64,000 nt of DNA from Dehalococcoidia bacterium (GTDB lineage Bacteria; Chloroflexota; Dehalococcoidia; GIF9; AB-539-J10). Position numbers and translations under genes: made by a program. Below, in pieces: positions 38,606 to 63,197 of the stretch. The notes under the pieces are model-generated. The model ran no database searches, had not been told where the DNA came from, and saw nothing but the letters and a program-made list of their open reading frames with translations. Within the stretch, counting starts at the first letter, position 1, and each line of letters starts with the position of its first letter. The DNA is taken from NCBI GenBank assembly GCA_040766535.1, contig JAXGQG010000002.1:64521-128520 (forward strand), given 5' to 3'.

Positions 38606-39975
38606 ATGATCAGTGTTGATGCCCTCAAGCGCATCGTTGGTGATGACTATGTCGTCACTCAGCGCGACCAGATCCAGGGCTACCTGGCGGATGAGACGTA
38701 CCTGGGCGTGCTGCCCAAACCGGCGGAGCACGTGGTGGTCGTCAAGCCCGCCAACCCTCAGGAGATCTCGGAGATACTCAAGCTGGCCAACCAGGAGAAG
38801 ACTCCCGTCTATCCGCGCGGCGGCGGCACGGGTCTTGTCGGCGCGGCCGTTCCCACGAAGGACGGCATCGTCCTCTCACTCGAGAGACTGGACAAGATCA
38901 TCGAGATCGACAAGGACAACATGATGGTGGTGGCCGAGGGCGGCGTGACCCTTGAACACCTGCTGAAGGAAGTCGAGACAGCCGACCTGCTCTTCCCACC
39001 GCACCCCGGCGACGAGGGCGCGCAGGTGGGCGGCATGATCGCCTGCAATGCGGGCGGCACGCGTGCCGTGAAGTACGGCGTGGTACGCAACTACGTCAAG
39101 GGACTCGAGGTTGTTCTGCCCACCGGCGAAATCGTCGAGATGGGCGGCAAGCTGCTCAAGAACAACACCGGCCTCGACCTGATGCACCTCATCATCGACT
39201 CCGAGGGCATCCTCGGCATCATCACCAAGGCCACGATGCGCCTGTACCCCAAGTTCGGCGCAACGGCGACCCTGGTCATCTCCTTTGACGACCGGCGCAA
39301 GGCCATCGGCATGGTTCCCAAGATCCTCCAGGCCGGCATCACCCCGCTGGCCATCGAGTACACGGAGAAGTCCTCATGGAGGAGACCGCGAAGCACGGCA
39401 ACATGACCTGGCCGGCGAAGCAGGGCACCGCGCAGATCATCGTCATCATGGCTGAGGCCAACGAGGACCAGCTCTACGGCATGTGCGAGCAGTTGTCCGG
39501 CATCGCCGAGCAGAACGGCGCAGTCGACGTCCTCATGGCGGAGACGAGTGCGGAGCAGTCGACCATTCTGAAGATCCGCAGCGAAGTGGGCAACGCGATG
39601 AAGTCCAAGATCTGCGATGCCCTCGATGTGACCGTGCCTCCAGCGGCCATACCTGACCTGCTGGACGCCATCGACAAGGTCGGCGAGAAGTACGGCATCT
39701 TCATCCCGGTGGTCGGCCATGCCGGCGACGGCAACGTGCACCCGAACATGTTCTGGGAGTACGACAAGAAAGGCCTGCTGGATGCCGCCAAGAAAGAGAT
39801 CTACGCGGCGACGGTCAAGCTGGGCGGCGTCATCAGCGGCGAGCACGGCATCGGCAAGACCAGGCTGCCCTATCTCAGCCTGGGCCTCGATCCGAAGTCG
39901 CGCGAACTGAAGCTCGGCGTTAAGAAGCTGTTCGACCCCAACAACATCATCAACCCGGACTGCGTGATTGTGTAG
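38606..39975 (+). pseudogene. FAD-linked oxidase (GlcD / D-lactate dehydrogenase family), one frameshift near 39372
   Basis: FAD_binding_4 blocks: VVKPANPQEISEILKLANQEKTPVYPRGGGTGLVG, NAGGTRAVKYG. The C-terminal half (HAGDGNVHPN...GEHGIGKTR) lies in ORF 39376..39975. The junction reads AIEYTEKS / LMEETAKHG. Confidence 0.8.
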
Positions 39976-53535: not shown

Positions 53536-53593
53536 GCTGCGGGCACCTCCGATCGCAGATCCCCCTGGCGAGGGGCAGAGAATGATAGCAGAC

Positions 53594-53938
53594 ACCGCCG
53601 CCGAAGCGGCGGAGTTCTGCGTTCTGTGTTCTGAGTTCTGGGTTCCGAGTTCAGCGGCAAGGCCGGAGTTCTGCGTTCGCCCGCGAAACGCGGGGTTGCG
53701 AGTCACGAGTGACGAGTGGCGAGTGCGCCGCCGAGGAGGCGGAGCTCTGAGTTCAGTGCGCGCGCTCGAGTCCTGAGTTCTGAGTTCTGAGTTCTGAGTT
53801 CTGCGTTCGCTACGCGATGCGCTGGAGCCGCGTGAGTCACGAGTGGCGAGTGCGCCGCCGAGGCGGCGGAGTTCTGAGTTCACCGACTAGACCAGAATTC
53901 TGCGTTCGCCCGCGAAACGCGGGGTTGCGAGTCACGAG
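53594..53938. repeat. Composite intergenic repeat block: GC hairpins plus heptamer (NGTTCTG / TGAGTTC) microsatellites
   Basis: Hairpins of the type CGCCGC-CGAA-GCGGCG occur three times (variants) and CCCGCG-AAA-CGCGGG twice. The module AGTTCTGCGTTCGCCCGCGAAACGCGGGGTTGCGAGTCACGAG is duplicated (about 53666-53710 and about 53895-53938). Heptamer runs lie at 53612-53655 and 53773-53807. Confidence 0.75.
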
Positions 53939-54078
53939 AGGAGTGCGCGGATGGAACCCGGAACCTTCAACCCGGAACCCGCCAACCCGCCACAGACCGG
54001 GGCCACGGAAGGAACGGGAATCGGCCCGCAGGCGCACCTGCTGGACAGGCGCACGCGCCACAGACACAATTCCCTGCC

Positions 54079-54868: not shown

Positions 54869-55615
54869 GCTGCGCGCGGCCGAACACCACTCCCCACCAG
54901 CGGAGACTAGCCCTCGAATGGCCACACCCCAAGATGTCGTTCCACGACGCTGCGCGCGGCCGAACACCACTCCCCCACTAGCGGAGACTATGCCTCCATG
55001 CCACATCCCCACGATGTCGTTCCACGATACCGCCGTGCGCGGTCGCAATCCACTCCCCCCACTAGCAGAGACTATGCCCGAATGGCCACACCACGATGTT
55101 TGCCGCACGAGCCGCTGCGCAGCCGAACGCCAGCCCCCCAGTGAAGACAATCCCCTGATGGACATATCCCCTAATGATGTCGTTCCACGCGCTGCGCGCG
55201 GCCGAACACCACTCCCCCCACTAGCGGAGACTATGCCTCCATGCCATCCCCGCGATGTCGTTCCACGCATGCTGCGCGCGGCCGAACACCACTCCCCACT
55301 AGCGGAGACTATGCCCGAATGGCCAATTCCTCACGATGTCGTTTCACGACGCTGCGCGCGGCCGAACGCCAACCCCCCAGTAGTGAAGATAATCCTCGAT
55401 GGACATATCCCCACGATGTCGTCCCACGACGCTGCGCGCAGCCGAACACCGCTCCCCCCACTAGCGGAGACTATGCCCGAATGGCCACATCTCAGATGTT
55501 GCTCGGCACGACGCTGCGCGCGGCCGAACACCACTCCCCCCAATGGCGGAGACTATGCCTCCATGCCACATCCCCACGATGTCGTTCCAACACGCTGCGC
55601 GCGGCCGAACTCCCA
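54869..55615. repeat. Tandem array of about 9-10 copies of a 77-83-bp unit, three unit subtypes
   Basis: Units start with GCTGCGCGCGGCCGAAC at 54869, 54949, about 55031 (divergent), 55114, 55191, 55271, 55351, 55431, 55513 and 55594 (truncated). Bodies alternate between ...ACTAGCGGAGACTATGCCTCCATGCCACATCCCCACGATGTCGTTCCACG, ...ACTAGCGGAGACTATGCCCGAATGGCCAC... and ...CAGTGAAGACAATCCCCTGATGGACATATCCCC.... Confidence 0.9.
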
Positions 55616-56423: not shown

Positions 56424-57142
56424 CTAGAAGAACATGCGAACCATCTGGAAGTTCCGGATCACGTTGTCTCTGCCCGAGACCAGCGGACCGGCCATGCTGC
56501 TGTGGCCAGGCAGGATGTACTCGATATCCAGCTCGGAGAGCCGGCTGATGCTCTCCTTCATCCGGCTGATGCTGCCGCCCACGAAATCCATCCGTCCGAT
56601 GCTTCCCGGAAACACCATCACCGCTCACCAGTACTCCGACTCCGGCAGATAGATGCAGGCGCATCCGGGGGAATGCCCGGGCGTGATGAGTATCTCCATC
56701 CGGCATCCGTCGCAGTTGACCGCGTTGAGCGGCCCCTCCTGCAGCAGGATAGTCGGCTTGGTGGCAGGCAGCGTACCGAAAGAACCATAGAACGGATCTC
56801 CACCCCAGTGAGAAACTCATGTTCCGGTACGGAAAGGGCGACGCCAGCGCCAGTGCGGCGCACCACGTCGTCCACCGCCTGGAAGTGATCCGGATGGCTG
56901 TGAGTCCCGAACACCAGACCCACATCCTCCAGCCTCAGGCCATCCGCGGACATCGCCTGCACCAGGGAGTCCAGCGGCCGTTCTCCCATCGCGCCATACG
57001 TCATGCCGGGGTCGACGAGCATATGGGCTTCCGGTCTGTCCAGCGCGTTGGCGAGCACCACGGAACTGGAGTTGATGCCCTGACCAACCCAGAGGTAGAA
57101 GAACACCCCTTCGGTTATCTCGGCGGACCTGTGCAACACCAT
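56424..57142 (-). pseudogene. MBL-fold metallo-hydrolase, 2-3 frameshifts
   Basis: ATG 57142 gives MVLHRSAEITEGVFFYLW... with the HxHxDH motif (GTHSHPDH). The middle part (ILITPGHSPG) and the C-terminal part (ORF 56424..56621, YILPGHS) are in other frames. Confidence 0.7.
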
Positions 57143-57284
57143 TGGCTCTCCCCGAAGCGACGGATGCGCCGCGATTCGCAGACGATCCGTTCGGGTATTA
57201 TAGGTGAAAGCGCGGCAGCGTCGAACGAAGCAGGGTAGAGCCGTTCCGCTGCTGCCGGACCGCGCAACCACCGTCAGGCCACAG

Positions 57285-57544
57285 GAGCGAACTCCGCGTC
57301 CGCCCGTTGGGTTTCCCTGCATGACCGCCATCCGGCCGTGGGCGAGATGTATCTCGCCCGCAGACCATGCCCACAGAGCCGCTGGACTGTCACCACCCGA
57401 CCACACATCGCCACCATCCGGCCGTAGGCAAGACACATCTCGCCCACACCATGCCTGCAGAGCCGCTGGACTGCCACTGTCGCCACGGTCCGTCCACGCA
57501 CCGACACCTTCCGGCCGTAGGGGCGGACCCCGCGTCCGCCCGCC
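57285..57544 (+). repeat. Upstream REP-like hairpin cluster (GTAG/GTGG-hairpin on the + strand), arranged in about 85-95-bp units
   Basis: GTGGGCGAGATGTATCTCGCCC (57338-57359), GTAGGCAAGACACATCTCGCCC (57424-57445) and GTAGGGGCGGACCCCGCGTCCGCCCGCC (57517-57544). Each is preceded by C(A/T)TCCGGCC, and the first two are followed by CATGCC.CAGAGCCGCTGGACTG. Confidence 0.7.
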
Positions 57545-57620
57545 ATACACATCACCCGTCTCCTGAGAACACATAACGAAGAGATCTCCAATCGTCGCCG
57601 GCGGTGTACAATCCTGCGCA

Positions 57621-58140
57621 GTGAAGGACGCAAGCCTCCCCACACGGCATATCCTCCGTCTGCGAGGATACGATTACTCAACGCCAGGTGCCTGGCTTCG
57701 TCACACTGTGCGCTGAAGACCACAGGTGTGACTTCGGTGAAGTCAAAGACGACATTGTCGCCCTGACACCACTGGGACACATCATCCACAACACCTGGGT
57801 GGAGGCCTGTTCCTTCTGCACCGGAGTCAGCGCGGACGCGTTCGTGGTGATGCCCAACCACCTCCATGCCATCGTGCTTCTGCACAACGACACCACCAAC
57901 CGCAACGATGGCCGAGATGGGACCACGGGGCTCTCTTCCTTCATACGCCGATTCAAGACCCTCAGCACCTTCCGCGTCGTGCGGACAGCGGTGTGCGATG
58001 GAAGGTGCTACGACGCGGGCGCTTGTGGCAGAGGTCGTACTACGAGCACGTCATACGAGACGATTCCTCCCTGAGCGCGTTCGTGACTATAACATCGCAT
58101 CGAATCCGCTCAGATGGTCGCTTGACCGCGAGAACCCGGA
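57621..58140 (+). pseudogene. REP-associated tyrosine transposase (RAYT, IS200/IS605-like Y1 HUH transposase), at least 3 frameshifts
   Basis: ILRLRGYDYSTPGAW, then a shift to FVTLCAEDHRCDFGEVKDDIVALTPLGHIIHNTW...FVVMPNHLHAIVLL (HUH). A further shift gives LWQRSYYEHVIRDDSSLSA, and another gives VRDYNIASNPLRWSLDRENPES. The start (GTG 57621) and the end are approximate. Confidence 0.7.
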
Positions 58141-58228
58141 GTCCGCGGACACACCTCTCGGCTATCCGCTGAAGCGGCGGAACAGTGGATGGTCTGAGAT
58201 GACACGGACGAGGCCCCCGACGGTGACG

Positions 58229-58744
58229 GCGGGCGGACGCAGAGGTCCGCTCCTACAACAGCACTTGTGTTCCGGCCGCGATTCCGGGTCAGGAAACACC
58301 TCCGCTGCAACTGGAGACTAACGCCGATGCCCGCGGGTTCACGCGATTCACAGACACCGCACCCGCGTCGTTCCGGACGGCGGAGATGTATCTCGCCCCT
58401 ACCAACGCAGGCAGCCGACCGATTCCGGGTGTGCGACGCACCTCACCTATCAAAGCTGCGTGATTCTAGACGGCGGCGGACGCAGAGGTCCGCACCCTAC
58501 AGAGGAATCGACAGACCAAAGGCCAGACAGCAACAACGGTGGGCGTCCGACGGTACGACGGCGGGCGATGTATCCTGCCCTCACGACAATACAACGACAG
58601 TGGGCTGAAACGGCGATTGTGCGGCAGGAACGGGACAATGTAATTCCCGCTGAACCTGAAAACCGATGCCAGCGGGTTCATGCGATTCACAAACACCGCA
58701 CCCGCGTTGTTCCGGACGGCGGGCGAGATGTATCTCGCCCCTAC
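58229..58744 (-). repeat. Downstream REP-like hairpin cluster (GTAG-hairpin on the - strand), two hairpin types
   Basis: On the + strand the elements end in CCTAC or CCCTAC. Type 2, GCGGAC-GCAGAG-GTCCGC, lies at 58233-58250 and 58476-58493. Type 1, (G)GGCGAGATGTATCTCGCCCCTAC, lies at about 58376-58402 and 58718-58744. A degenerate copy is at about 58556-58584. A longer unit of about 80 bp (GATGCC.GCGGGTTCA.GCGATTCACA.ACACCGCACCCGCGT.GTTCCGGACGGC...) is duplicated at about 58325 and about 58666. Confidence 0.7.
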
Positions 58745-58886
58745 AACAGAGGCGCGTTGGTGTGTAGGTCGTCCACCTCCCATTGCAGCGGAGCTAGTCT
58801 TCCGAGCTCCCGGTTTTCGGTCCCCACTTGAAACCGCATGGCAAGGTGGTACACTAGCGCACAGGTAACGGGACGTTTGACTGGAG

Positions 58887-59573
58887 GTGGCTACAGTGGC
58901 CAAGGTGTTCATCGTCGATGAGCAGCCCATGTACAGACAGGGTATCCGGGCCGCGCTTGCCAGGACACGGGACGTGGAGATCGCCGGCGATGCAGATCTG
59001 AACGACGACGTACTCACGGCGATCGATGCGCAGATGCCCGACGTGGTCGTTCTCGGTGCCGATGTGGCATTCACCGAGAGTCTCCGCATCTGCAGGGCCA
59101 TCAAGCAGCGGGAGCCTTCCGTGTCCATCATCATCCTTTCTGGCGACGGCCACCAGGACGAGCAGGTATTCCAGGCCATCAGGGCGCAAGCCTCCGGCTT
59201 CCACGGCCGCAACGTGAATCCCGACGATCTGGCCAAATCCATTGCGAGGTGCGCGCGCGGCGAGCACCCGATCAACGAGACCATGGCCACCCACCCCCGC
59301 GTGGCGGAACAGATACTGGAGCAATTCCAGGAACTCTCCCGCGAGAGGGAGACGGCGAGCTTCATGTCTCCCCTGACCCCGAAAGAAATGGAAGTGCTCA
59401 GATACATGGCCGAGGGCTGCTTGAACAAGCAGATCGCGGACAAGCTGGATGTGACCGAGCAGACGGTGAAGAACCACATCACGTCCATCCTGCGGAAGCT
59501 CAACGCCAACGCCCGCACCCAGGCCGTGGTCATCGCCATCAAGAAGGGGCTGGTGACGCTTTCGTCCGATTAG
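58887..59573 (+). CDS. LuxR/NarL-family response regulator with atypical (probably non-phosphorylatable) receiver domain
   Basis: C-terminal HTH_LuxR: LTPKEMEVLRYMAEGCLNKQIADKLDVTEQTVKNHITSILRKL. The receiver fold is recognisable, but the acceptor position reads PDVVVLGADVAF (Gly where NarL has Asp59) and the conserved Lys position reads GFHGRN. GTG 58896 is an alternative start. Confidence 0.85.
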   Translation: MATVAKVFIVDEQPMYRQGIRAALARTRDVEIAGDADLNDDVLTAIDAQMPDVVVLGADVAFTESLRICRAIKQREPSVSIIILSGDGHQDEQVFQAIRAQASGFHGRNVNPDDLAKSIARCARGEHPINETMATHPRVAEQILEQFQELSRERETASFMSPLTPKEMEVLRYMAEGCLNKQIADKLDVTEQTVKNHITSILRKLNANARTQAVVIAIKKGLVTLSSD

Positions 59574-59725
59574 GACCTGCCCCCGCCCTTTCACCACCAC
59601 GGCTCCTTCGCTGTGCCTGCAGGCAGGCGCGACGGGGAACCAGACGACTAATTGCATTCGAGGCCGGCAGCCACCACCGATTCCGGGTAGGCAGCGTGGC
59701 TCACATCCCAGGTACGCGTCATTCG

Positions 59726-59999
59726 AGGCGGCGGGCGAGATGTATCTCGCCCCTACGACAAGGGCGGGAGATGCGCCGATCGTCCAGCCGCCACGGGGCA
59801 ATGAGCTTCCAATCAGACAGGAAGTCGCTGCCGATGCCAGGGAGTCGATCGCATTCACCAACGCCGTGCCCGCGTCCTGCCAGCCGTCGGGCGGACGCAG
59901 AGGTCCGCCCCAACAACATAACTTGTCCTACCCGGCAATTCCGTCAACAAACGCCTCAGCGTCATTCGTGACGGCGGGCGAGATGTGTCTCGCCCCTAC
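59726..59999 (-). repeat. Third REP-like hairpin group (same families, - orientation)
   Basis: GGGCGAGATGTATCTCGCCCCTAC (59733-59756), GGGCGGACGCAGAGGTCCGCCCCAAC (about 59889-59914) and GGGCGAGATGTGTCTCGCCCCTAC (59976-59999). Confidence 0.7.
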
Positions 60000-60297: not shown

Positions 60298-61976
60298 ATG
60301 AAAGTGGTATCTCGATTGCTTGCAGCGCTCATGACCGCGGCGCTGATTGTCCCGGCTACGGCTGGCATAGTATCGGCTGCCGTGGACATCAACACGATGG
60401 CCGTGAAACCCACATCTGGACCCGTCGGCACCGAGGTGTATCTCGAGGGCTACGGGGATGATGATGGCAATGGCTACGTATACTTCGAATTGAGCGAGGA
60501 CGAAGAAGAATGGGTGCTCGTCCTGAGCAATAGCAGCAGCAACTGGACGTGGGACGAAGAGGAAGTAGAAGAAGATGAGTACGTCTACTACTTCGACACC
60601 AAGAAATTCGAGATTCCCGAGTGTATCGGAGGCGAGCACCGCATCGTGATCGTGGATTCCAGTCTCGGCAACAGCACCGATTACGACGATGTCACCGATA
60701 ACGACGTGGGGCCGATGCGGACCTTGAGGTTACCCCGGCAATTACGCTCACCTCAGACGACGAGGGACCAGCAGGCACAGAGGTAGAGGTAAAGGGGACG
60801 GGATTCGGAGACCGGGAGAAGATCACCATTTACTTCGATGGCGAAGAAGTGGAGCTTGTCGAGACGATCACCGCAAACGACGTCGGCACGTGGACCGGCA
60901 AGTTTGTGGTGCCGCCCGCCAGCCAGGGCGATCATGACATCACCGCCGACGGCAGCTACACCGATGAGGACGACGTCGATGCCGCCACCTTCACCGTCAC
61001 TCCCGGCATCAGCGTGTCCCCCGCCAAGGGCAAGGTCGGCTCCGAGGTGGTTGTCAAAGGCAGTGGTTTCCGCGAGAGCGAGCGCGATATCGAGATACTC
61101 TTCGACTCCAGATCAGTGAAGTCCGGCATCACAGCCGACTCCGACGGCATATTCCAGACAACGGTGATCGTACCCAACGCCGCCATGGGTACGCATGATA
61201 TCGGCGCAAAGGGCCAGTACACCTCGTCCGGCAGTGTGGATGAGGTGGAATTCGAGGTTGAGCCCACCATCACGATCGAGCCCCTCAGCGGCAACGTGGG
61301 CACGGAGATAACCGTGAGCGCCGCCGGCCTACCGGCGAACTCCGCGGTGACCGTCACCTACGATACCACCACCAAAGGGACGGGCACGACCTCGTCCGAT
61401 GGCACGCTGGCGGCTATCACCTTTGCCGCAACCCATACCCAGACAACACACACGGCTGATCACCAGGTCTGCGTGGTATTCGACTCCACCACTCTTACCG
61501 AAATATTCGTGATGGAGTCCACGGCGCCGGCGAAACCGACTCTCCGCTCTCCGTTGAGCGGAACGCGCATCGGGCTGCTGGGGAAACAGACGCCAACCCT
61601 CAGCTGGAGCGTGACAGAGGACCCCAGTGGCGTGAACTACGGACTGCAGATCTCGACCACGCCTGACTTCAGCCAGATACTGATATCCAAGTCCGGGCTT
61701 GTGGCCCAGGGCAGCGCCATCATCGTCTCGTCCTCCGGTCCGGAGATGACCTACACCCTGAGCGAGGCGGAGGCATTGCCGTTCGGCACCTATTACTGGC
61801 GCGTGAAAGCAGTGGACGGCGCCATGAACGATAGCGGCTGGAGCGCGTCCAACACGTTCAAGAGCGGACTGTTGCCGACATGGGCGCTCATCGTCGTCAT
61901 CGTTCTCGCCGCGGTACTCGTGGCCGCGCTCATCTACGTATTGATAATCCGCGACCGCGTGGGGCTCTACGACTAA
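60298..61976 (+). pseudogene. Membrane-anchored surface protein with repeated IPT/TIG-like domains, one Fn3-like domain and a C-terminal TM anchor; single frameshift at a G4 run (60708-60711)
   Basis: AAGGAGG lies upstream of ATG 60298. Signal peptide (LLAALMTAALIVPATAGIVSA). Repeated modules contain GP.GTEV.V.G.GF (GPVGTEVYLEGYG, GPAGTEVEVKGTGF, GKVGSEVVVKGSGF, GNVGTEITVSAAGL). An acidic insert is present. The C-terminus reads YYWRVKAVDGAMNDSGWS, then the TM helix WALIVVIVLAAVLVAALIYVLII, then RDR. Restoring one G joins ORF 60298..60786 to the frame of ORF 60849..61976. Confidence 0.8.
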
Positions 61977-62021: not shown

Positions 62022-63197
62022 ATGAAATTGGCGGTTATTGGTTTGGGACAGTGTGGCAGCCGGATTGCCGACCACTTCGCTCGGCTAAACCTCAAGGCAC
62101 AATCCGAGCGGAAGGCGACCATTGCGCCCATCGTAGTGGCAGCAAACACAGACCAGGCGGACCTCACCGGTCTGCGATTCATCAAGAACGACTACTCTCA
62201 CCGCATACTGATGGGTTTGAGACAGACGCTGGGTCACGGTGTCGGCAAGATCAATGAGTTGGGCGCCCAACTGGCCCGGGAGGACGGCGACAAGATCCTC
62301 GACTCTTTGAAGAGCGACCGCCGCTTCTACGAGACGCACGCCTTTCTCGTGATCGCGGGCACTGCCGGAGGCACTGGTTCCGGCTCCCTCCCGGTCATCG
62401 TCAGGATGCTCAAGGAGCGTTACGTCAATAAGCCCGTGTATGCCCTGGCGGTGCTGCCGTTCGAACATGAACAGTACAGCGAGGCGCGCAGCGCCTACAA
62501 CAGCGCCACCTGTCTCAAGTCCGTCTATGAGGCAGCGGATGCCGTCTTCGTGGCAGACAACCAGCGCTACGTCAAGAAGGACTCCAGCCTGGCGAATAAC
62601 ATGGAGAAGATCAACCGCGTGGTGGTGGAGCCGTTCTACGATATGATGTGCGCCGGGGAAGTCACCACACGCAAGATGGTGGGAGCGCGCACGGTCGACG
62701 CCGGCGACCTCATCGCCTCGTTCGAGGGGTGGACGGCCATCGGCATGGGCAGAACCGAACTGCCGGCATTCCGCTTCCCCTGGGAGGTGGTGAAGACCCA
62801 GTTCCGCGACAAGGCCATCGAGAGCTTCAGAGGCACACAGGCCCTCGATGCCGCCATCACCGACCTCTCCATCGCCTGCAGTCCGCGCGACTGCGCGAAG
62901 TGCATCTACATCATGTCCGGCCCCGCCAAGGAGATGAACATGGACATGGTGAAGGCGATCAGCGACCACGTGGCCGAGATGGCGCCCACCGCGCTCATCC
63001 GCGGCGGCGACTTCCCCGGAGAGAAGCACTTCATCGACCTCACACTCATCCTCTCGCAGCTATCCAACGTGCCGCGCATCGCTGAGATGTACGAGCAGGC
63101 CACGAAGTATGCCGAGGATCACAAGGGGCAGTTGCTGGACACACAGGTCAAGATTCAGCAACTGAGCGAGATAGGCAGGGAACTGCCCCTGCTGTAG
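62022..63197 (+). CDS. Tubulin/FtsZ-superfamily GTPase of the tubulin/CetZ-like type (not canonical FtsZ)
   Basis: GGAGG lies upstream of ATG 62022. T1-like MKLAVIGLGQCGSRIADHF. T4 signature VIAGTAGGTGSGSLPV. Also VLPFEHEQ..NSATCLKSV..ADAVFVADNQ and a T7-like TVDAGDL. 391 aa. Confidence 0.85.
   Translation: MKLAVIGLGQCGSRIADHFARLNLKAQSERKATIAPIVVAANTDQADLTGLRFIKNDYSHRILMGLRQTLGHGVGKINELGAQLAREDGDKILDSLKSDRRFYETHAFLVIAGTAGGTGSGSLPVIVRMLKERYVNKPVYALAVLPFEHEQYSEARSAYNSATCLKSVYEAADAVFVADNQRYVKKDSSLANNMEKINRVVVEPFYDMMCAGEVTTRKMVGARTVDAGDLIASFEGWTAIGMGRTELPAFRFPWEVVKTQFRDKAIESFRGTQALDAAITDLSIACSPRDCAKCIYIMSGPAKEMNMDMVKAISDHVAEMAPTALIRGGDFPGEKHFIDLTLILSQLSNVPRIAEMYEQATKYAEDHKGQLLDTQVKIQQLSEIGRELPLL

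Follow-up and report, generated by a model that had tools for sequence, protein, structure and literature searches.

A RAYT/REP locus with two types of GTAG-footed hairpin in a Dehalococcoidia bacterium

Introduction

Do a transposase gene scattered over three reading frames and the GTAG-headed hairpins around it form one system of repetitive extragenic palindromes (REPs) and a REP-associated tyrosine transposase (RAYT), and is that system of a new kind? The question is raised by positions 57285-59999 of a 64,000-nucleotide stretch of a Dehalococcoidia bacterium (contig JAXGQG010000002.1, positions 64,521-128,520), referred to here as the window and used for all coordinates. A sequence-only reading had proposed a decayed RAYT of the Y1 HUH type among inverted REPs of two stem types, with some REPs in longer duplicated units resembling bacterial interspersed mosaic elements (BIMEs) and a response-regulator gene inside the REP field; for a host outside the Proteobacteria, it had proposed a new REP family. 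As described below, the locus is very probably a REPtron, i.e., a single-stranded DNA HUH/Y1 endonuclease-transposase of the RAYT/TnpAREP family among its cognate REPs. It is a RAYT/REP system of known kind, and the conditional claim of novelty is unsupported.

The transposase and its protein family

The gene in question is the following.

57621..58197, + strand: RAYT/TnpAREP gene spanning three frames; start uncertain, stop codon TGA at 58195-58197

All the motifs from which the sequence-only reading had spelled a RAYT were found on the + strand, spread across three frames between about 57621 and 58197: RLRGYDYSTPGAW; FVTLC...FVVMPNHLHAIVLL; LWQRSYYEHVIRD; and RDYNIASNPLRWSLDRENPES. The second of these segments carries the HUH motif (57859-57867, within NHLH at 57856-57867), the third carries the WQ pair (58025-58030, within LWQR at 58022-58033), and the fourth contains the codon of the catalytic tyrosine (58088-58090). 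The reconstructed protein matched the NCBIfam model NF047646, “REP-associated tyrosine transposase,” with an E-value of 7e-16 (58 bits), which was the best and essentially the sole NCBIfam match, and matched Pfam Y1_Tnp weakly; the search against IS200 and RAYT models that had been proposed as a check thus upheld the suggested identity. One ORF of the window, 57688-58074, corresponds to an NCBI protein encoded on a contig of 144,047 bp. A homolog search with the reconstructed protein returned 573 sequences, many labeled RayT. Four close intact homologs are 78% (P0001) and 67-68% (P0002-P0004) identical to the reconstruction, and well-delimited copies (P0003, P0004) are 184-206 residues long. 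Across 36 aligned homologs, conservation is complete at N94, H95, Y172, N176, and P177 and almost complete at H97, W151, and Q152, with a family consensus of PNHxH, LWQRNYYEH, and REYIxxNP.

Structural comparison led to the same family. A profile from the 36-homolog alignment, run with hmmsearch against the Protein Data Bank (PDB), matched 4ER8 only (1e-5); the family profile was needed for this, as a single-sequence phmmer search of the PDB with P0003 gave no match. The AlphaFold2 model of the intact ortholog P0003 has a mean predicted local distance difference test score of 79, and Foldseek ranked 4ER8_A, from the Escherichia coli TnpAREP-REP complex, first among its structural neighbors (E 5e-6), followed by the ISDra2 and IS608 TnpA proteins. 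On the basis of this model, the family is predicted to adopt a Y1-transposase fold nearest to that of TnpAREP.

A Y1 transposase would equally be encoded by an autonomous insertion sequence of the IS200/IS605 type, which could have entered as a unit, with REP-like hairpins at its ends, between the MBL-fold hydrolase and response-regulator genes that border the locus. However, IS200 transposases have Y-x3-Q as their tyrosine motif, whereas the motif here is the class 2 form Y-x3-NP (PMC6006769, Table 1). Scores with the NCBIfam model for IS200 were 22-23 bits at most, against a cutoff of 55, whereas the intact orthologs score 60-71 bits with the RAYT model NF047646. No tnpB was seen either, the block containing no open reading frame (ORF) of tnpB size. 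The arrangement of the hairpins and the distribution of the locus, which also bear on this alternative, are considered in the following two sections.

REP hairpins in the window

Twelve REPs with a GTAG foot and either of two stems, called type A and type B, were identified in the window. Four lie upstream of the RAYT gene on the + strand and eight downstream on the - strand, where at least three and at least eight had been proposed. In a tolerant scan, ten copies carry five errors or fewer, and two more are badly decayed.

57285..57306, + strand: type B, badly decayed, with GTAG missing and the stem disrupted; 82% match to the copy at 57505-57542, fold z -0.76
57338..57359, + strand: type A, perfect 9-bp palindrome, foot only GT(GG); loop as in the downstream copies, orientation ambiguous
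57424..57445, + strand: type A, GTAG foot, decayed stem (4 errors); fold -2.5 kcal/mol
57517..57541, + strand: type B, GTAG foot, intact 8-bp hairpin; closest to the RAYT 5′ end, position and orientation as in L001:99-124
58231..58256, - strand: type B, 1 error; ~35 bp past the RAYT stop codon
58379..58402, - strand: type A, 2 errors
58474..58500, - strand: type B, 2 errors
58560..58584, - strand: type A, badly decayed, GTGA foot, stem lost; z -0.57
58721..58744, - strand: type A, perfect
59733..59756, - strand: type A, perfect; 3′ of the response-regulator gene
59889..59914, - strand: type B, foot mutated to GTTG (position 59912); the 99%-identical contig L127 keeps GTAG
59976..59999, - strand: type A, 1 loop error

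Both hairpin types suggested by the sequence-only reading occur far above chance: the type A palindrome GGGCGAGATGTATCTCGCCC has 10 strand-wise matches with three mismatches or fewer, at six loci, compared with 0.03 expected from shuffled sequences, and the type B core GGCGGACGCAGAGGTCCGC has three exact matches compared with 0.07 expected. The two types share the foot and the base of the stem (GTAGGGGCG...CGCCC), and their differences are confined to the loop and the distal part of the stem. As DNA, intact copies form 8-bp hairpins that leave the GTAG foot unpaired (-9.4 to -10.4 kcal/mol; z -2.6 to -5.3), whereas decayed copies fold poorly.

Orientation on either side of the gene is inverted, as had been described from the sequence alone. 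All eight downstream copies are on the - strand, and all upstream copies are on the + strand save the ambiguous one at 57338. Duplicated units containing a REP were also found, at a length of ~85 bp (57320-57405 and 57406-57490; 58322-58406 and 58663-58747), but the label “BIME-like” does not hold, since orientations do not alternate and the units are head-to-tail tandem duplications. A longer unit, of 341 bp, is present in two copies in the window and in a single copy in L127, a conspecific contig. Specifically, the two 85-bp type A units in 58322-58747 bracket 256 bp, and L127:1-320 has one unit, amounting to a 341-bp copy-number difference between near-identical strains.

GC-rich stem-loops in intergenic DNA, some of them at gene 3′ ends, might instead be host regulatory elements such as terminators or mRNA stabilizers, and the regular ~60-bp spacing of five copies in the related contig L001 recalls a CRISPR array; in either case, the hairpins would be unrelated to the transposase. 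The terminator reading was rejected because no T-run follows the stems. A CRISPR array was ruled out because the segments between the repeats share homology across L001, L002, and the window, i.e., they are tandem duplications rather than unique spacers. Furthermore, the conserved GTAG foot is a guide feature of RAYTs, the hairpins accompany a RAYT at seven loci and in one case lie within the RAYT gene, and an Rfam scan of the whole window gave no match. Taken as a whole, this alternative is very improbable. The REPs may still have secondary host functions, as are known for those of E. coli. No tRNA gene was found in a tRNA scan, and hence no integration-site signature.

The locus in related genomes

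Two further features of the window are needed for comparison with related contigs.

57267..58825: REPtron core block (upstream REPs, RAYT, and proximal downstream REPs); absent at the syntenic empty site of L101
58896..59573, + strand: NarL/LuxR-type response-regulator gene (Response_reg and GerE domains); a host gene within the REP field and not part of the system, syntenic in all relatives

The response-regulator gene thus lies inside the REP field, as had been stated. Five related contigs contain an intact ortholog of the RAYT, the proteins being 61-86% identical to one another and 68-79% identical to the reconstruction. The ortholog occupies the same locus in all three contigs long enough to show its neighbors (L001, L002, and L004), and inverted REP flanks are present in five of five. 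In relatives, genes for an MBL-fold hydrolase, the RAYT, the response regulator, a TIG-domain protein, a CetZ-like tubulin, and PHO4 recur in that order; the order was assembled from overlapping contigs, none of which spans all six genes.

GTAG-footed REPs in inverted orientation on both sides of the gene, the arrangement that defines a REPtron, were found in the window and around the intact RAYTs of L001, L002/L003, L004, L005, and L065, with upstream GTAG on the coding strand and the downstream copies inverted. The number of copies varies: one upstream and five downstream in L001, 12 upstream (in a 170-bp higher-order array) and three downstream in L002, two and six in L004, and one and one in L005. 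Types A and B occur together in L002/L003 and in L127. More distant Dehalococcoidia RAYTs (L065 and L091, 43-49% identity) have type B REPs in the same layout, L091 with upstream REPs and an in-gene copy only. In the L091 gene (CAZKHH010000117.1, L091:298-323), a type B REP, GGGCGGACGCAGAGGTCCGCCCCTAC, lies in frame between MPNHLHAI and RRFKS, i.e., in the stretch from the HUH motif to the Y motif; no in-gene REP was seen in the RAYT copy of the window.

One related contig lacks the block. In L101 (CAZVCS010000075.1, from the Dehalococcoidales metagenome-assembled genome [MAG] CAZVCS01), the starts of the MBL-fold and response-regulator genes are ~215 bp apart, with neither a RAYT nor a REP between them. 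Homology between the window and L101 stops at ~57266 and restarts at ~58826; therefore, the block at ~57267-58825 is an insertion or deletion relative to the L101 genome. The presence or absence of this 1.56-kb block between related genomes is what would be expected of an IS200/IS605-type element. On the other hand, the hairpins on the two flanks point in opposite directions and are present in multiple copies, whereas the subterminal hairpins of IS200/IS605 elements lie on the same strand; the same hairpins are dispersed without any transposase; and relatives carry RAYTs of 61-86% identity at the same chromosomal site, diverging together with the neighboring gene. The Y-x3-NP motif, a model score of 23 bits or less against a cutoff of 55, the inverted flanks, and the lack of a tnpB-sized ORF largely refute this reading, which is extremely improbable.

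Set beside the empty site of L101 is the stable-locus synteny of L001, L002, and L004. Response-regulator identity between loci is 81-91% and RAYT identity 61-86%, and the two sets vary broadly in parallel, as would fit vertical descent in which the RAYT evolves faster. From these alignments, the chromosomal site of the RAYT would seem to be fixed in this clade of Dehalococcoidia, lying between the MBL-fold hydrolase and response-regulator genes, and we infer that the gene is vertically inherited. Unit lengths in the REP field are 85 bp (upstream) and 341 bp in the window, 60 bp in L001, and 170 bp in L002, and REPs corresponding to 59733-59999 are present in the window and in L127, with none at that position in L001. 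An intact gene, an apparently broken gene, and an empty site at one syntenic position offer a natural series for following the fate of REPs after loss of the transposase.

Relation to known REPtrons

Judged on its motifs, the family appears to fit best with TnpAREP subclass 2.4, equated by Quentin et al. (2018) with RAYT Group 4 of Bertels et al. (2017), although subclass 2.7 is also possible (PMC6006769, PMC5581495). The published features of subclass 2.4 are a signature of NH[IFV]H, WQ, and YIxNNP with a median length of ~194 residues (PMC6006769, Table 1), a stem base of three G-C pairs, double-foot REPs, and REPs that lie in frame within the transposase gene; REPtrons with several REP subfamilies are common (PMC6006769). 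Corresponding features here are a close, though inexact, signature of NHxH, WQ, and Y-x3-NP in proteins of ~190-200 residues, long flanking REPs with a 5′ GT[AG]G foot, three G-C pairs at the stem base (GGGCG/CGCCC stems), double-foot variants, the in-frame REP of L091, and more than one REP subfamily per gene, along with a patchy non-proteobacterial distribution and low REP abundance. Differences from the published description are the middle HUH residue (L here; I, F, or V in the logo), the Y motif (Y[IV]xxNP in the closest relatives rather than YIxNNP), the long head-to-tail arrays formed by gene-adjacent REPs, and the host class, since Dehalococcoidia are not named in the surveys (PMC6006769, PMC5581495).

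Other systems are more distant. E. coli TnpAREP (RayT/YafM, 4ER8; subclass 2.2/Group 2) is the best structural match and the sole PDB profile match, has equivalents of the HUH motif, W94/Q95, and Y115-x3-N119-P120, and is likewise encoded between inverted GTAG hairpins; however, it is only ~21% identical. In addition, E. coli REPs have long bulged stems and occur by the hundreds in alternating BIME/REPIN (REP doublet forming hairpins) pairs, whereas those of the window have perfect 8-9 bp stems, are arranged head to tail, and are missing from ~70 kb of surrounding host-like sequence. The IS200/IS605 TnpA proteins (IS608, ISDra2) share the HUH/Y1 fold and the use of single-stranded DNA hairpins with a short guide or foot, but differ in their Y-x3-Q motif, dimeric and multi-copy character, same-strand end hairpins, and frequent tnpB, none of which was seen here. 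Closest in host are the GTAG-23 REPs that Di Nocera et al. (2013) describe in Thermomicrobium roseum and Roseiflexus castenholzii (PMC3733652). These share the GTAG tag and the phylum Chloroflexi but belong to another class, and the likeness is one of description rather than of sequences compared with types A and B.

GTAG REPs have already been described in Chloroflexi, the Planctomycetes-Verrucomicrobia-Chlamydiae group, and Cyanobacteria (PMC3733652). Subclass 2.4/Group 4 is known from non-proteobacterial phyla including Caldilineae (PMC6006769, PMC5581495), and Group 4 RAYTs are common in Cyanobacteria, Chlorobia, and Caldilineae (PMC5581495). Because GTAG REPs and Group 4 RAYTs had thus been reported in Chloroflexi, the window locus is not a new kind of system: the host is indeed non-proteobacterial, but the new REP family predicted for that case is not borne out. 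With this locus, the documented range of REP/RAYT systems comes to include Dehalococcoidia, for which almost all knowledge derives from MAGs.

Dispersal of the REPs

Genome contigs were scanned for the type B core and metagenomes for type A with its foot; all counts from both scans are lower bounds. About a quarter of the type B core matches listed carry a GTAGGG foot, most of them in Dehalococcoidia MAGs. The remaining approximately three quarters, without a GTAG foot, were set aside as chance or unrelated GC-rich hairpins in high-GC genomes. Type B with the GTAGGG foot occurs at a minimum of seven loci on six contigs of JALNYR01 and at least three loci each in the Dehalococcoidia MAGs JAUVZB01, JAUVYD01, CAZLPP01, and CAZVCS01. 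Among the matches listed, it is also found in Ignavibacteria, Lawsonibacter, and FCPU426, and in Armatimonadia there is one copy whose foot reads GTAGAG. A RAYT is nearby at only three of the GTAG-footed type B loci listed. Type A was found on 120 or more metagenome contigs, which range from 36 to 76% GC, mostly as one copy each, with a RAYT on only three of those listed; the double-foot form GTAG...CTAC accounts for 45 of ~131 type A elements sampled on metagenome contigs. In Vescimonas fastidiosa, a complete replicon of 861 kb contains 15 matching sites, and T. roseum gave no match in the plasmid collection searched. Both hairpins are dispersed repeats, present in other Dehalococcoidia MAGs and in other phyla, and are not peculiar to the window locus; confinement to it would have refuted the REP interpretation.

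REPs are usually regarded as species- or genus-specific. Types A and B nevertheless recur nucleotide for nucleotide in Dehalococcoidia, Bacillota (Lawsonibacter, Vescimonas), Ignavibacteria, and the candidate division FCPU426, and type B recurs with one foot mismatch in Armatimonadia. Such identity could reflect a single RAYT lineage with a frozen recognition hairpin, or horizontal movement of RAYTs with their REPs, the Dehalococcoidia REPtron then being a unit of gain and loss that grows by head-to-tail duplication; this scenario is put forward as a doubtful one. The cross-phylum identity of 24-26-nt REPs over a 40-point range in GC content is the sole aspect of the system that possibly goes beyond current descriptions.

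Two side observations follow. Three metagenome contigs of 36-38% GC (L144, L153, and L236) each have a single copy of the GC-rich type A REP, GTAGGGGCGAGATAYATCTCGCCC, in a context of very different composition, a hint of either recent acquisition or strong constraint on the sequence. In addition, the hairpin GCGGACCTCYGCGTCCGCC, with a TGGAGG-like 5′ tag instead of GTAGGG and followed by GC, was found in Verrucomicrobiota (Opitutaceae, Chthoniobacteraceae) and Lentisphaerae (contigs L009, L032, L040, L050, L060, L074, L080, L086, L092, L097, L103, and L119). A Planctomycetaceae contig (L064:6942-7464) has six identical copies of the hairpin, three of them at 42-bp spacing (7152, 7194, and 7236). 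The TGGAGG-tagged hairpins may represent another, related family of REPs that differs in its foot.

Gene decay or assembly error

Lesions in the window RAYT were mapped by alignment to the intact ortholog of L005. Five were found, namely four frameshifts and one 3-nt insertion in the catalytic Y motif: +1 at 57694, -1 after 58006, -1 after 58072, +3 at 58089-58091, and -1 after 58157. The insertion changes the invariant Y-x3-NP to Y-x4-NP. REPs in the window carry a mean of 1.6 errors, not counting two unrecognizable copies, compared with 0.7-1.0 around intact RAYTs. The five RAYT lesions fall within ~0.6 kb, a density ~30-75 times that found elsewhere in the window (~5 lesions in 58 kb; one in 4.4 kb of coding sequence shared with conspecifics). 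A window-wide frameshift count based on third-position GC content and ORF overlap was too noisy, a Pfam check upholding two of five candidate ORF pairs. If the assembly is accurate, the locus would represent an inactivated RAYT copy with drifting REPs.

Several results weigh against reading the locus as a decayed REPtron of subclass 2.4/Group 4. The first concerns the protein family: both the reconstruction (58 bits) and the intact orthologs fall short of the curated NF047646 cutoff of 80 bits. However, this model is an equivalog built on better-known RAYTs, and scores below its cutoff thus argue for a divergent subclass and not against the superfamily. Placement within the subclass, in turn, was made from motifs and not from a tree. 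The second concerns the REPs, of which there are no copies in the other 61 kb of the window and none in the 8.8 kb of the conspecific contig L126 that extend beyond it, such that all host copies seen lie in 57285-59999 and genome-wide dispersal in the host is only putative. Group 4 RAYTs have a median of ~14 occurrences of their flanking 16-mers per replicon (PMC5581495), and a low REP density in the host is therefore expected. The third concerns the lesions. All four comparable ones (-1 at 60724 in the TIG-domain gene, 608-611 in the Peripla_BP_6 gene at ~0.6 kb, -1 after 58157 in the RAYT, and the 3-nt insertion, for which only two bases could be compared) are missing from contigs 99.1-99.4% identical to the window (L126, L127, and L249). 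Frameshifts in conserved genes that near-identical contigs lack suggest indel errors in this assembly; hence, the apparent decay of the RAYT may be partly an artifact, and its status as a pseudogene is uncertain.

It is accordingly a substantial, though tentative, possibility that the organism has an intact gene and an active REPtron, all four frameshifts and the 3-nt insertion being consensus errors, for example of a long-read MAG or a strain mix. At least five conserved genes other than the RAYT are affected in this assembly: in addition to the TIG-domain and Peripla_BP_6 genes, which are intact in L126/L127 and L249, respectively, apparent frameshifts affect the MBL-fold hydrolase gene (~56650-56800), the adjoining conserved hypothetical gene (~55830), and an FAD_binding_4/FAD-oxidase_C gene (~39300-39400). 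Contig L127, which begins within the 3′ end of the RAYT, can be read without interruption from Y motif to stop codon, and its first two bases indicate no 3-nt insertion. Most RAYT lesions fall in homopolymers of 2-3 nt, and the window copy still encodes every catalytic residue. Against this, a 3-nt insertion is atypical as a consensus error, the REPs near the window RAYT are more degenerate than those beside intact RAYTs, and no intact conspecific RAYT (>90% identity) is present among 5.8 billion clustered proteins. Because lesions are 30-75 times denser in the RAYT than in the window background, a genuine pseudogene is the somewhat favored reading of these alignments, held with modest confidence. 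The “decayed” transposase of the sequence-only reading therefore stands as far as the five lesions and degenerate REPs are concerned and is weakened by the near-identical contigs. The start of L127 inside the RAYT also suggests that short-read assemblies of this clade break at the REP locus.

Proposed mechanism and history

A mechanism can be proposed by analogy with E. coli TnpAREP (4ER8; PMC3479197, PMC3333891) and with IS608 and ISDra2. The enzyme would bind the REP hairpin on single-stranded DNA and read its unpaired 5′ GTAG foot through the WQ...EH..R region. The tyrosine of the Y motif (Y-x3-NP) would then cleave the DNA while the HUH histidines hold the metal, and rejoining of the ends could lead to REPs being excised, copied, or inserted elsewhere. 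Since types A and B share the foot and the stem base (GTAG plus GGGCG...CGCCC) and differ only distally, one enzyme plausibly serves both. At the locus itself, REPs appear to have built up head to tail as units of 85-340 bp were duplicated in tandem, and to have spread across the neighboring response-regulator gene. Local growth of the REP field in this way seems to be directly visible in the repeated units.

Other repeats and neighboring genes

Two further repeat-rich regions lie upstream of the locus. In the array at 54869-55610, an 80-bp unit is repeated 9.2 times in tandem (75% matches), with higher-order periods of 159 and 322 bp. It adjoins the 3′ side of the conserved gene beside the MBL-fold gene, contains no GTAG hairpin, does not fold significantly (z 0.27), and has no counterpart at the syntenic positions in L101 and L002; the long ORFs that span it are probably not real genes. 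The second, unrelated intergenic region, at 53577-53950, consists of runs of the heptamer GAGTTCT (53612-53652 and 53768-53808) interleaved with repeated units of 127-130 bp that contain the GC-rich palindromes CGCCGCCGAGGAGGCGGAG and GCCCGCGAAACGCGGG.

Downstream of the locus, 62022-63197 encodes a tubulin/FtsZ-family protein with a CetZ C-terminal domain (PF21011, 60 bits), which scores 63 bits with the FtsZ model TIGR00065 against a cutoff of 295. The protein falls in a cluster whose named members all come from Dehalococcoidia MAGs, which places the host in Chloroflexota and not in Proteobacteria. CetZ is usually treated as an archaeal cell-shape tubulin. The CetZ-like gene stands beside the gene for a TIG/Ig-domain membrane protein in all the related Dehalococcoidia contigs.

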